NCBI GenBank assembly: GCA_964016885.1
Contig: OZ024743.1
Coordinates: 97,402,001-97,466,000 of the forward strand
Reading direction: 5' to 3'
DNA length: 64,000 nt
Source: Eledone cirrhosa
Lineage: Eukaryota
Of this stretch, positions 333-53,512 are shown piece after piece; the stretch's first letter is position 1, and each line of letters begins with the position of its first letter. The notes under the pieces are model-generated. The model saw only the letters and a list, made by a program, of their open reading frames with translations, did no database searches and was not told where the DNA came from. The position numbers and the translations under genes were made by a program.

Positions 333-520
333 AAGTTTATCATGGATTCAATTGGGTGTAACCACAGTAAGTAAGGTACTCATTACATAGCAGAGTATAA
401 ATATTTAATAAAGAAATGGCTTCTACAGGACTAGAACTGTTTCATTCGGGAGAAATTATCAGGAAGGTCTGATCATTTCTCCCAAATGAAGCAGTTTTAG
501 TCCTGTATAAGCCATTTCTA
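333..520. mobile_element. TA-flanked fold-back PLE-end remnant, family A; hammerhead cores decayed in both arms
   Basis: Inverted arms ~411-462 and 469-520; same sequence at 3189-3395, 12703-12845, 14660-14835, 33335-33385, 49560-49665; cores read CTGATAA (minus) and CTGATCA (plus). Confidence 0.75.
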
Positions 521-1131
521 TACTATATATATATATATATATATATATATATATATATATATACATATGTATATATATATATGTATGTATATATATACTG
601 TATGTATATTTGTACGTGTACATGTAAGTATGTTTGCATGTAAGTATGTTTGCATATATTCATGTATGTATGTATAGATAGATAATAAGAGTGCTACATA
701 GAAAATAACCAATAACAAAAACGAAAACAAGTAAAGTGATGAGTCAAAACTTGTGTGTAATTAAATATTAATTAAGCATGTTCACAGTGACTTGGAAGAT
801 TGGCTGGCGGTATGTGATACATCTGTAGTACGGCGGCTGTAATAAGACATCACCGACTATCGAACTTCCAATGAACTTGAACGTCCCTTCATACAAACAA
901 GCATACATATAGAAACATATATGTGTATATAGACTGTTTATATATATATATATATCACCCTCTCTTTCGTTTTCTCTCTCTCTCTCTCCCTCTCTCTCTC
1001 TCTCTCTCTCTCTCTCTCTCTCTCTACACACACATATATATATATATATATATATATAAGTGTATAGAGAGAGAGGGACAAAGAAAGAGCGAGTGATATA
1101 TATATATACATAAATATATATATATATATAT

Positions 1132-1338
1132 AACGGCGATGAATTAGTTTTGCGAGGTTTTTGATATGAAATCGTGTGTCGAAACAAATATTGTTATACC
1201 TGGGGAGGGTCATATTTGTGTAATATTGCCAGAATTAATAACAGAACACACTGGCGAAAACCAACCAAACAGTGAGTGTGTTCTGTTATTAATTCTGGCA
1301 ATATTACACAAATATGACCCTCCCCAAGTATAACAATA
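1132..1338. mobile_element. Fold-back remnant of the 3' terminus of the PLE family at 36251-38064
   Basis: TATTGTTATAC(C/T)TGGGGAGGGTCATATTTGTGTAATATTGCCAGAATTAATAACAGAACACACT matches 36251-36315; present here as two inverted arms, the left one with an extra ~55 bp tail; (TA)n on both sides. Confidence 0.85.
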
Positions 1339-1669
1339 TATATCTATATATATATATATATATATATATATATATATATATATAGTAATAATAATAAATT
1401 TGAAGACTAAAATCCATATATATATATATATATATATATATATATATATATATATATATATATATATATATATATATATATATATATATATATAGAGAGA
1501 GATAGATAGATAAATATACACGGGTGTGTATGATTGTGTATAGAAGATTATATTAATAAAAGGAATTCCAACTTCGTCTGATTTACTCGTTTTATTTACA
1601 ATCCTTTAAAATTCATAATGGTATTAGAATGAAATAGTATGGTAGAATATTAAATGTTAAGTGTTAATT

Positions 1670-1706
1670 GAACAAGTACTTTCATGCTTTCGCAATCTTC
1701 AGGTTC
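1670..1706 (-). ncRNA. Minimal type-I hammerhead ribozyme
   Basis: Minus strand GAAC-CTGAAGA-TTGC GAAA GCAT-GAAA-GTAC-TT-GTTC; stem I GAAC/GTTC, palindromic GTAC loop III. Confidence 0.85.
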
Positions 1707-1760
1707 ACATTGTGTGGTGAAAGTTGAAAATTGCAAACTTGACTGTCACGACACAACATA

Positions 1761-1795
1761 AACCTGAGGATTGCGAAAGCATGAAAGTACTTGTT
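1761..1795 (+). ncRNA. Minimal type-I hammerhead ribozyme
   Basis: AAC-CTGAGGA-TTGC GAAA GCAT-GAAA-GTAC-TT-GTT. Confidence 0.85.
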
Positions 1796-1940
1796 CAATT
1801 AACACTTAACATTTAATATTCTACCATACTATCTCTTTCTAATACCATTATAAATTTTAAAGGATTGTAAATAAAACGAGTAAATCAAACAAAGTTGGAA
1901 TTCCTTTTATTAATATATATATATATATATATATATATAT

Positions 1941-50000: not shown

Positions 50001-50051
50001 TATATATATATATATATATATATATATATATATATATATATATATATATTC

Positions 50052-50513
50052 AATGATATTAAATAAATGGAAACTATATTTATAAAACCATATTTATTCT
50101 ATTATATATATTTCAAGGGTTCCAAAAACTTTGGTACGCTTTCATCAGATAAAATACAAAGTATGTTTTATAAATTTTGACATAGCCAAGGAAATATACC
50201 TTATCAGTTGAATTTATATCTTATCAGTTGAATTTCCTTTGGAACTATCCAAGGGAAATTTAACTGATAAGTTATGTTTCCTTGAATATGTCACAATTTA
50301 TAAAACATACTTTGTATTTTATCTGATGAAAGCGTACGAAAGTTTTTGGTACCCTTGAAATATATGGTACCCTTGAAATATATATACTAGAATAAATATA
50401 GTTTTATAAATATAGTTTCCCTGTATTTAATATCATTGAATATTTACCCCAGAAACTTGTCGAGTGCTCTGAATCATTTATATTATAGTGCTATAAACAT
50501 TTATATTTGTTGA
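50052..50513. mobile_element. Family C fold-back element with a hammerhead in each arm
   Basis: Minus 50095-50156: TATTTTAT-CTGATGA-AAG..CTT-GAAA-TATATA-TA-ATAGAATA; plus core at 50323-50329 with a local 18 bp duplication. Confidence 0.8.
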
Positions 50514-51049
50514 ATATATATATATATATATATTTATTAAAATAACAGATTAAAGTTTAAGCAAAGAATCGGTGCTTTCATCCTTAACGGGATCTTCCTT
50601 ATCCTTATCGAGCCCTCTTTGGATTTAGTCTTCAAATTTATTATTATTACTATATATATATATGTGTATATATATATGAATATTTGTGTGTGTGCGTGTG
50701 TATGATTATAAGTTGTTACTTTCATAGTATTTTTCTTCTTCGGATTTATATAATTCTGAACATTGTTCGTGTTTCCTGTAGTTAATTTAACACATTTTTC
50801 TGTTATATATAGTAGGGAAGGGAATTACCACAGTTTTATACGCAATGATTTAGCCGACAAATGAAGAGAAAATTACATGATCGTCATTTCATAAATCTTT
50901 TCTTAAATGACACAAGGGGACGGAACAATTTCTGTATATATGCACACACACACACACACACACATACACACACACACACACACACACACACACACACACA
51001 CACACACACACGCACACACATACACACATATATATATATATATATATAT

Positions 51050-51241
51050 AACGAAGGAAATGTGGTAAGGAACCAGGTGGACCATAACGCACCAAAGTAC
51101 TCAATACTTGAGGTAGTAGAGTGGGTAATAGGAACCAGTAAGACCCCGACAGCTGAGCTCAAGCCGCTTCGACGGCTAATTTAGTCCAGAATTAGCCGTC
51201 GAAACGGCTTGAGCTCAGCTGTCGGGGTCTTACTGGTTCCT
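51050..51241. mobile_element. Family B fold-back element
   Basis: Arms join at ~51183; the left arm has the long tail. Confidence 0.85.
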
Positions 51242-51390
51242 ATATATATATATATATATATATATTATACATAAATATACTGGCATCCGACAACATATAT
51301 ATATATGTTAAAACAAAAAACAAAAACAATAACGAAGAGTGCAATATAAAGTGTTAGTATATATATATATATATATATATATATATATAT

Positions 51391-52082
51391 AGTAATAATA
51401 ATAAATTTGAAGACTAAAATCCAAAGAGGGCTCGATAAGGATAAATATATATCAAATATATAAGAACCGTAGAACAAATATTTATTAAAATAACAGATTA
51501 AAGTTTAAGCAAAGAATCGCTGCTTTCACCCTTAACGGGATCTTCTGATACTAACAAAGTCAATCTGTAAACGCAGAAGTGGATATTTCAAAAAACGTTG
51601 CAGCCGGAGGAAGACAGAAAAGACGATACTTTGGTTCGTTCATTCGGTCTCCTAGTTAGAATTTTAGTCTACGACTCCAGCTATACTATTTGCGTGGTTT
51701 TGTCTTTGCTTACAATTGTTCTCCCCGCTCCACATATGACTTATTATCTTCGTTTTTTTCGTTCATTGCCAGAAAACGTCTCTATGAACCACCTAAGAGA
51801 ACATTAGTCTACGACCTCTTTTATACCATAAACGTGGTTCTGTCTTTGCGCGTAATTATTTTTCACCGCACCAAATAATAAGGTATTATATTCGTTTTTT
51901 CCCTTCTTTGCCAGGGAACCTTACCGCGAACCAAAGTATCGTCTTCCTGTCTTCCTCCGGTTGCAACGTTTTTTGAAATATCCACTTCTGCGTTTACAGA
52001 TTGAATTTATTAGTTTCAGAAGATCCCGTTAAGGGTGAAAGCACCGATTCTTTGCTTACACTTTAATCTGTTATTTTAATAT
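51391..52082. mobile_element. Largest family D fold-back, with internal ~140 bp tandem repeats and a CAGAAGA motif in each arm
   Basis: 51484-51640 is inverted relative to 51927-52082; TTAGTCTACGAC-starting repeats at ~51664 and ~51804; plus-strand motif at 52012-52062. Confidence 0.8.
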
Positions 52083-52088
52083 ATATAT

Positions 52089-53512
52089 TTTTCGACGGAC
52101 CAACTCCTAAACAAGAAAGATGAACTGGTTACTGCATGTAAACACCGATTACGTAGGACTTACCTCGCCCTCAAACCCCATAATGACCCGGGGGGTAGAC
52201 TAGGGCTATAACACCCCACTTGACTATTTTGTAATGGGTAACCCCTGCTTGCCTATGGAGACGTAAGATCTTCTTTTACATTCTTTTATCGCTTCCTCTA
52301 TATTTCCTCCTTCCCCCCATCCCTCCCTAGTCCTTCTACCCCAGTTCCCTTTCTTTGTCGTCGTCTTTTTCTCGCCCACCCGAGGTAGCCCATCGATCCC
52401 TTGTAGCTTCAGCACCCCCACCCCCTCCCCTATTCTATGATAGATTTGGCTGACTCCGCTTTTTATAGAAGAGGTGTTAGACTTCGGATACTCGCCCCCT
52501 TCTCCGACCGCTGTCCCTTTTTTCCGTGCCTTCTATATTTCTTAGTGGCTTCTTTGCTTTAATTTCTCGTTTATCCAGTATCTCTTTTTTCTTTTTCCCT
52601 TTTTTTTTGGGGGGGGGGGGAGGGTGTTCCTGTATTAATTTTCCGTTCTTTACTTTTACTCCGTACGATCTTTCATGTAGCTTGTATAAGACTTTTTGTT
52701 TCGTGGCGGTACCCTTAGAGTTAGCACTAGTATTTTTTTGCGGGACCCTGAATTATATTCTCGTACTAGTTTACTTTCTTGCACTGGGTGGTTGCTGGCC
52801 CTGTGTTTGGGGTAGAAACCTTTCTAATTTTCGTGGTAGTCTCTTTAGTATTCTGGCCCCCCCCCCCCCCCCTTTGTTGACCCGTCACCGTACGATACAC
52901 GCACTTATACCTCGTATAAGGGTCCCTTTATTTCCGTCCCACCTAGTTTATTTCTATTATTATTATTTATGTTTTTATTTTACATTATATATATATATAA
53001 TTTTTTTTTAAATTTATTTATCTATTCTTTTATTCACTTATTTGTTTATTTATTTATTTATGTATTTCTTTAGCCTAGCAATAGCGATTGACTTAAGTCT
53101 TAGTAACCAGATTTTGCTTTTTTTTTTTCTCTCTCTCTCAGTACCTTTTACAGTTTTACCTTTCATTGTTCTACTTACCGTTTCGACCTCCTCCCCCTCC
53201 CCCTCCCCAGTATCCTCTTTGACCTCACACCCAGCTGTAGCTGGCACTATCAACGCATGAATGGGTCTACTCCACCCCCTCTCCCATTTTCTCCTACCGG
53301 CAGGTTTAGCTACCCCTTCCCCCACCAACTTGCCATCACAGATTTACTACTAACTTGTGATGTGACCAATCCTGGTGATTATCTCTTTGACCATATATGG
53401 AATTACCCCTTGATAAGTTCGGCTATTTAAATACCAGAATTAATTTTTCATTCAGTACAGAATTAGCCGTCGAAACGGCTTGAGCTCAGCCGTCGGGGTC
53501 TTACTTGTTCCT
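52089..53512 (+). mobile_element. 3' end of a probable Hydra-type PLE: ORF C-terminus, ~1.2 kb UTR and hammerhead; parent of family B
   Basis: 52092-52211 reads STDQLLNKKDELVTACKHRLRR..*, resembling the LLNK.SEL...CRH terminus of Hydra-clade PLE proteins; ends in family B sequence; TA-flanked. Confidence 0.65.
53405..53499 (+). ncRNA. Complete type-I hammerhead with compensatory U3-A8 core
   Basis: ACCCC-TTGATAA-G TT CGGCTA..TAGCCG TC-GAAA-CGGCT TGAGCTC AGCCG-TC-GGGGT. Confidence 0.85.

Follow-up and report, generated by a model that had tools for sequence, protein, structure and literature searches.

How can a retroelement insertion come to have two different outer ends, each at a fixed place in the element's own sequence? 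The question is raised by a stretch of 64,000 nucleotides of Eledone cirrhosa DNA (assembly GCA_964016885.1, contig OZ024743.1, positions 97,402,001 to 97,466,000, forward strand; hereafter the window), in which many repeats lying between (TA)n arrays are hairpins. Two copies of one sequence point outward and meet head to head, and one of these arms carries a tail beyond the point at which the other stops. Judged from their sequence, the hairpins are the 3′ ends of Penelope-like elements (PLEs) inserted in (TA)n; families A, B and C are Hydra-like, and the element at 8164-10815 (N1) is Neptune-like. They are probably insertions of endonuclease-bearing (EN+) PLEs with two fixed ends internal to the RNA, produced by two reverse transcriptase (RT) subunits working on one RNA and, in the Hydra-like families, seated on one stem each. 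The head-to-head layout and the one-sided tail have already been published; the pairing counts and the twin stem motif are new.

Two internal ends, paired long with short

The pairing of the ends was counted over the whole assembly (3.0 Gb, rich in (TA)n) for one B subfamily, with exact patterns, 75-105 nt between anchors, and "long" meaning an arm that continues into the tail. There were 4,111 long+short, 36 short+short and 45 long+long hairpins (n = 4,192; 98% asymmetric), where free pairing would predict about 1,050 of each symmetric kind. A wider sample comprised 99 records and 1,044,000 bases, namely the window and 98 stretches of ten kb each (20 of them next to the window, 78 over 22 contigs). 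In this sample all 21 B pairs and all 10 N1 pairs are long+short, as are 14 of 15 N1 pairs from ORF (open reading frame)-selected and other loci, which brings N1 to 24/25. The two sharp end points and the excess of long+short pairs that had been predicted from a sequence-only reading of the window are thus present.

When segments between TA arrays were scanned blind to family, the window's elements came out as fold-backs in which one arm is flush with the array and its partner overhangs. Fold-backs made up 155 of the 910 inter-(TA)n segments in the 99-record sample. An arm was flush in 85 of them, with an overhang of 25-160 nt in 69, both sides flush in 8 and other overhangs in 8; six of the 8 both-flush cases, judged by eye, are cuts at a TA run internal to both arms. 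The remaining 70 have neither arm flush at a TA array and lie outside the overhang classes. The hairpin observation is confirmed, and it is neither chance nor local.

It had also been claimed that the arms linked to an ORF use the short end. This fits only the three ORF-linked arms of the window and fails genome-wide: among 39 ORF-linked N1 loci, 20 end short, 12 long and 7 without a detectable end, and among 19 such B loci the figures are 7, 10 and 2. Long and short ends are about equally frequent among ORF-linked arms.

The long end is not the RNA terminus, because in tandem copies of N1, B, C and A the tail continues into the 5′ leader and the ORF. The N1 tail in the tandem locus L166 runs on into the ORF and codes its residues 9-28, the two ends there being AACA/ATAT-CGG and ACGAA/ATA-CCG (the slash stands at the end point). 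An apparent third N1 end in L053 was rejected as another family's tail, the true run-on being that of L166. The B tail continues to the ATG as TTCGT/TAT-CTAG in 14 of 25 loci (L248-L272, some of them one array or duplicate), its short end being TTCC/TAT-TACC; a pattern search for run-on at a TA without a following T brought up mainly mutated arrays in the 30 loci inspected. C continues as TTAC/TAT-TTGG in 409 copies, into a second stem and the ATG, and A as AACG/TA-CC into a Hydra-like ORF (L364). No run-on of the tail was found in the fetched loci for D, E, the second Neptune-like family (Nep2) or the elements named 1520, 3778 and 7337 after their positions.

Long and short ends alike sit at TA, TAT or ATA. 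The short end matches the TA array over at least 3 nt in 16 of 25 family clusters (2 of 27 having been removed by an anchor filter), whereas the figure for positions up to 40 nt away is 15% (p 2e-8). This upholds the proposal of TA microhomology at this end.

A predicted bulged stem beside each end in families B and C

Tails that cannot otherwise be aligned between families share RCTC, 5-11 nt past the short end, and GAGYRC further on. The two halves belong to a motif, NCUC-Y...R-UN-GAGN-RC, that reads as a predicted 4-bp stem, a UN bulge of 2 nt and an upper stem that varies. B and C have a second copy after the long end at the same offset, so that each end lies 6-8 nt ahead of its own copy. 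The order in RNA sense, in B, C and loci from other organisms, is hammerhead-like motif, short-end site, stem 1, long-end site, stem 2 and ATG. A third Hydra-like locus, L077, has two stem-like motifs ahead of its ATG, and its long end was not located.

Conservation of the motif was examined through 101 homologous proteins, 32 of which were aligned with two frames from the present genome, and through 78 metagenome loci from one scan. ORF start and upstream DNA were available in 53 of these loci; 44 were non-redundant, and 34 had at least 150 nt upstream. Of the 34 outside Hydra-like loci, 24 have at least two motif copies in the 200 nt ahead of the ORF, 7 have one and 3 have none, while 275 control ORF windows yielded two motifs in none and one in 14. 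The median spacing of the stems is 62 nt. Pairs were counted by pattern, with the pairing positions left free, because MAFFT left the 5′ halves of the stems unaligned. The inner pair is C:G in 44 and T:A in 16 of 68 cases, a result reached in 0/20,000 permutations that take no account of shared descent; the outer pair is G:C in 51 and T:A in 4 (p 2.5e-4), and additional inner pairs are formed in 40/61, 37/44 and 23/34. Outside 3′ repeat ends fall within -4 to +8 nt of a stem in 15 of 21 cases (7 at the upstream stem, 8 at the ORF-proximal one), and plain (TA)n follows in six of these 15. The published consensus of Hydra-1_Ajap starts with both stems.

Relatives were absent among viral contigs, and an Rfam scan of the twin-stem region in 6 loci at E up to 1 gave one chance miRNA match elsewhere and no known family. 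A literature search that left older papers on PLE tails outside its range returned neither a strict long+short rule nor a duplicated leader stem. The twin stems go unmentioned in the passages of PMC8557442 on Hydra-clade PLEs, and this layout is absent from the passages on octopus repeats in PMC13282606 and on killifish Neptune in PMC12602865.

The elements of the window

Head-to-head long+short pairs between (TA)n are present in families A to E, the 1520, 3778 and 7337 elements, the remnant at 1132 and the element at 8164-10815, as had been read. The nine end points given in that reading are correct within 1-2 nt (B at 4851, 5409, 17390, 35861, 51241 and 53512; AACAATA/TA at 1338, 10815 and 36251). 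The AACAATA/TA sites do not belong to a single family, since 1338 and 36251 are those of Nep2 and not of the 8164 element. The extra tail of 30-130 bp holds roughly; the measured span is slightly wider, about 43-134 nt, with 162 nt in 7337.

8164..10817, plus strand: N1, a Neptune-like PLE, with inverted long arm 8167-8626 and 60-nt tail 8167-8226.
8624-10400 (frame), short end at 10815, plus strand: ORF-linked arm of N1, a broken, 5′-truncated RT + GIY-YIG fused to the long arm.
36250..38064, minus strand: Nep2, ORF-linked arm with short end at 36251, without an inverted partner.
1133..1339, no strand given: Nep2 hairpin (the 1132 remnant), long arm on minus, short arm on plus to 1338.
4852..5035, plus strand: B hairpin, short arm on minus, long arm on plus; identical copy at 5410-5593 through local duplication.
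4956..4988, plus strand: B short-end site, TAT, followed 8 nt on by stem 1 (ACTC-T, 12 nt, A-TT-GAGT-AC).
17391..17579, plus strand: B hairpin, long+short.
35863..36054, plus strand: B hairpin of another subfamily, long+short.
51051..51240, minus strand: B hairpin, long+short.
52083..53512, plus strand: 3′ 1.4 kb of an autonomous Hydra-like B, with final GIY-YIG codons, 3′ untranslated region and short end at 53512.
Within 52083..53512, plus strand: hammerhead-like motif with a U3:A8 core, read by eye.
333..523, minus strand: A hairpin, long arm 344-465 on minus, short arm on plus.
Further A: pair 3183-3394; arms 12705-12834, 14668-14807, 33333-33385 and 49596-49658.
19484..19768, plus strand: C hairpin, long+short; stem 1 (GCTC-T, 34 nt, A-TC-GAGC-CC) 6 nt past the short-end site.
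Further C pairs: 17229-17374, 34673-34790, 50530-50650 and 51392-52086.
13503..13861, plus strand: D hairpin, long+short; the tail holds stem 1.
Further D pairs: 2857-3129, 10871-11266, 33401-33653 and 50056-50482.
35468..35808, minus strand: E hairpin, long+short; a complete stem motif was not found.
Further E arms: 7904-8102 and 49771-49999.
1506..1917, minus strand: 1520 element, long+short, tail 43 nt; stem motif not found.
3772..4212, plus strand: 3778 element, long+short, tail of about 130 nt with ACTC...GAGT; TA microhomology just 1 nt.
7336..7831, minus strand: 7337 element, long+short, 162-nt tail with GCTC-T...A-TT-GAGC.
19272..19407, no strand given: short+short hairpin of a further family, unlisted in the earlier reading, which breaks the pairing rule.

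The assignment to PLEs is based on the ORFs. The N1 frame at 8624-10400 matches RVT_1 (E 7e-4) and GIY-YIG (E 0.01), both below curated cut-offs, and long frames exist in locus L179. N1 is called Neptune-like because it has a CX4CxxC linker (CIDKKCITC) and a CCHH motif (C..C..H..H around YIG); the label goes no further because Nematis has a linker too. The Hydra clade is characterized by an RWK-like motif, DKT, a CxCX5C linker, CxxC and CxH around the E and N of the endonuclease (EN), the lack of CCHH and a (TA)n target (PMC8557442). The long RT + EN frames of B carry this published set, with RWR, DKT, CNCPDRSSC (CxCX5C), CNLC (CxxC) and CKH (CxH), the clade being assigned by motifs. C both follows and precedes ORFs related to B, as does A (L364), and the N-termini of C and A carry KNIP and RWR; D, E, 1520, 3778 and 7337 are not tied to any ORF. 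Among the features of EN+ PLEs, those found are a single ORF with RT and GIY-YIG (N1 and B, with A and C linked to B-like ORFs), partial tandems forming pseudo-long terminal repeats (pLTRs), an inverted upstream copy and a one-sided tail. A type I hammerhead in the pLTR is a further feature of such elements; putative hammerhead cores were read by eye in A, N1 and B, and none is among the 150 Rfam matches listed; the core is a U3:A8 variant, which is documented (PMC4209133). The N1 ORF (L166:4500-5300, L131) has a long Asn/Thr-rich low-complexity stretch upstream of the RT, like the N-rich inserts of PMC3846280.

Two other classes were considered for the hairpins. A miniature inverted-repeat transposable element (MITE) or foldback DNA transposon does not fit the unequal ends, the variable junctions and the continuity with RT ORFs; such transposons have equal terminal inverted repeats and a fixed centre. 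Non-LTR (non-long-terminal-repeat) retrozymes consist of head-to-tail units with a complete hammerhead each, and the window's elements are head to head. Family A ends do recur head to tail every ~195 bp, with one inverted copy, in a retrozyme-like array at G000:C9:23835467-23836461.

Several further observations concern the same repeats. A near-identical duplication of about 560 bp at 4852-5906 comprises the B hairpin and a 226-bp unit (5107-5332 / 5681-5906). Tail-only fragments occur in the window (36084-36162, 29292-29381, 1385-1415) and elsewhere (L053:4330-4440, L161, L183), and start at a short-end TA site, lying between TA arrays or directly after another family's end; they account for 8 of 72 B ends in the sample and are perhaps arms cut or interrupted at that site. 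At 16491-17122, two arms of a single family lie in opposite orientation and have equal outer ends; between them are TA arrays and another family's tail, which bears the stem motif (16797-16886). More perfect or near-perfect hairpins, with arms that fall short of any TA array, lie at 23865-24004, 14376-14499, 42478-42542 and 54369-54466. Short inverted or direct pairs flank degenerate TA arrays at 2001-2054 / 2367-2416 and 38376-38813, and are possibly older PLE stumps split by microsatellite growth.

The rest of the window includes decayed coding remnants of other retroelements at 6468-7067 and 15016-16350 (related, ~70% identity), a decayed retroelement remnant at 55261-56260 with a 216-aa open frame on the minus strand, and a tRNA-like Rfam match at 63131-63192. 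A short repeat resembling a short interspersed element is present in many copies, some tandem or inverted (26067-26315, 48654-49086, 53832-54227, 59718-60802).

From two ends to one insertion

In the scheme judged probable above, the GIY-YIG domains would nick both (TA)n strands, and each nicked 3′ end would pair with 2-4 nt of UA-rich RNA directly 5′ of one stem. The subunit at the long end would copy stem 1, which becomes the tail, and would then re-copy the region of the other subunit, displacing it. The cDNAs would stop at random or at the RNA 5′ end and be fused, presumably by host end joining, often with added bases. ORF-linked arms would end long or short because either subunit could make the longer cDNA. 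The further proposal, that the stem pair conserved in the Hydra clade serves as two enzyme handles on which an RT-endonuclease dimer primes both strands from two internal UA sites, stands at an even chance; the spacing of the handles would set the tail length, and the same RNA would be copied twice.

The arm lengths bear on where copying stops. The start lies 42-62 nt upstream of the short end in 107 of 182 B arms, 39 of which begin at 61-62, and at 63-82 nt in 7 others; the A of TCATTY occupies position 62, and TATTTAAA lies 25 nt upstream. Eleven N1 arms start at 248-258 and none at 259-324, adjoining AAAATGGCG, and 13 C arms start at 64-71 and 3 at 72-117, adjoining TTAGTT. Peaks at 25-26 nt in N1 and 545-546 nt in B are artefacts of the references used; those for A and D, which stop at their own hairpin centres, are uninformative on such ceilings. 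The motifs at the ceilings are presumably initiator (Inr), TATA and YY1-like promoter elements, and the ceiling may represent run-off at the transcript start. Most short hairpins would then come from the site copy nearest the RNA 5′ end, which would account for the pile-up of B arms at 42-62 nt. Most B hairpins end inside the hammerhead-like motif. Arms pass the hammerhead-like cut site, as judged by eye, and the templates are therefore likely uncut, as described in PMC11167929.

Several points weigh against the scheme, besides the shared descent that the permutations disregard. The pairing rule has exceptions, namely the 81 symmetric B hairpins, L274 (long+long) and L193 (short+short); the family at 19272 is short+short in 2 of 3 pairs. 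Locus L173, whose flanks are identical on both sides, is also an exception to the rule. TA microhomology is only 0-2 nt in 9 of 25 clusters, and the Poseidon study saw no homology between start site and target (PMC11167929). The stem motif was not found in the tails of N1, Nep2, E and 1520, and N1 pairs just as strictly (24/25). The stem 2 predicted after the long end of A is only a 3′-half-like remnant, in 7 of 19 matches, and 6 of 21 outside 3′ ends are not at a stem. Folding z-scores are unremarkable (-0.21 for C, +0.28 for B), and the C centroid lacks the stems. A cap-derived base is not evident by eye at the 62-nt B arms. The low mixing of subfamilies reported next is also expected if one source locus is active at a time, or from arm conversion.

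The two arms of one insertion share sequence variants. Mixed-subfamily B hairpins number 34, against 3,729 unmixed ones of one class and ~4,200 of the other. Within an N1 insertion the arms diverge by 3.4% (median), against 6.7% between insertions (14 pairs, p 3e-6), although the own partner is the nearest N1 arm in just 13 of 28 arms. Mixed B hairpins are rare on the four largest contigs (7/34), though these make up over half of the assembly. The mixing data do not distinguish a single RNA from a pair of RNAs that share a source locus. In the latter alternative, which is possible but doubtful, an asymmetric complex would hold one RNA per subunit, both from one locus, with forced short-end and long-end starts. 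Overlapping arms would arise without strand displacement, low mixing would fit if one locus were active at a time, and the 34 mixed and 81 symmetric hairpins do exist; the 98% asymmetry would nevertheless need a separate cause, the duplicated stem is left unexplained, and some arms are of equal length (130/130, 252/252, 256/256), as a single RNA end would yield.

Alternatively, two pLTR copies on one tandem RNA, one downstream and one upstream, might be primed separately in an L1-like manner. Partial tandems are frequent among full-length loci and the arm-length ceiling hints at use of the 5′ copy, but this account offers no reason for the use of a different site in each copy, or for the fact that either may be long. 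Pairs with both arms longer than 2 kb (L160, L191, L193, L274) would demand long multimers, and both arms of the short hairpins reach the same ceiling. This alternative is improbable. L1 twin priming is itself a process in which both target strands prime and a head-to-head inversion is joined at 5′ truncations; one primer uses the poly(A) end and the other an internal site that varies, and the resulting pieces are free of overlap. Here, in contrast, both sites are internal and constant, and the two arms are copies of one sequence that overlap throughout, so that L1-type twin priming was rejected.

Fold-back self-priming, in which the long-end cDNA would snap back and copy itself as far as the short-end TA, comes near an idea in PMC3846280. 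It accounts for identical variants in the arms, for strict pairing and for nested inverted insertions at some junctions. The short-ended arm could not then exceed the long-ended one, yet it extends further 5′ in 20 of 42 B pairs (the long-ended in 10, neither in 12). Where N1 arms differ by more than 30 nt, the short-ended one is the longer in 9 of 16 pairs, by up to 2.9 kb (8164-10815, L188, L192, L194). Most junctions, moreover, contain inserted bases and not a templated loop: 30 of 42 B junctions carry 1-43 of them, 3 are blunt, 8 overlap by 1-7 nt and one is a reference-length artefact (L001-L030, whose query fixed the junction, are omitted). As a general route fold-back is largely refuted, and we regard it as very improbable. 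These data support two cDNAs that were primed separately and joined where their 5′ ends are truncated, as the sequence-only reading had it; microhomology at the junctions, which it named as a check, is weak.

That reading also placed one primer at the true RNA 3′ end and the other internally. A tail abutting (TA)n, as in L166, would give read-through RNA with (UA)n after the long end. The long end is, however, an internal TA site in the N1, B, C and A tandems, followed by leader and ORF in these four families and by a stem of its own in B, C and outside loci, and terminal priming is accordingly highly improbable. Fold-back reads built into the assembly are hardly credible as a source of the hairpins, since the arms differ by substitutions (median 3.4% in N1), junction insertions vary, each family has its own fixed outer ends, and in unrelated assemblies the ends lie at the same motif.

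The preferred reading, two subunits starting at two internal sites of one RNA, can be set beside what has been described for other PLEs. A head-to-head inverted, 5′-truncated copy and a tail at a single end, continuous with the ORF start in tandems, are known in EN+ PLEs, and (TA)n targets are known for Hydra and Naiad (PMC3846280, PMC8557442). The published tail is 30-40 bp, "optional", and ascribed to endonuclease resolution or self-priming (PMC3846280, PMC8557442), whereas the tail here is 43-162 bp and, in 98% of the B hairpins counted, sits on exactly one arm; its length in B and C matches the spacing of two repeated RNA motifs. PAc, the Poseidon PLE of the green anole, cuts and extends both strands in vitro from two internal starts that bound the tail, takes unprocessed RNA as template, and was modelled as a dimer (PMC11167929). 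Its start sites are not homologous to the target, and each site serves both strands alike (PMC11167929); in most families here the starts have 2-5 nt of TA microhomology, and the two ends exclude each other. The main text of that study does not describe a duplicated cis-element for PAc. Hydra-clade PLEs and B share protein motifs and the (TA)n target, and the hammerhead of the clade has a putative counterpart in the hammerhead-like motif of B (PMC8557442). Non-LTR retrozymes are likewise short, non-coding, hammerhead-linked PLE derivatives; they form head-to-tail arrays, whereas the elements here are head-to-head truncation products of autonomous elements (bioRxiv 10.64898/2026.07.22.740005).

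PLEs are the closest retroelement relatives of telomerase, and the origin of their tandem and inverted insertions with a one-sided tail is a stated open task (PMC8557442). The sole in vitro study found two internal starts and no rule linking them; to this the present analysis adds a counted rule and a candidate cis-element, two stems conserved across organisms, each beside one start site. The twin stems offer an annotation marker for Hydra-clade ends. The analysis also implies that hairpins resembling MITEs, present by the thousand in such genomes, are stumps of retroelements. If the proposed mechanism is true, it would constitute a retrotransposition route in which first-strand synthesis is inherently double, and would give a simple reason why PLE insertions are inverted and tailed on one side.

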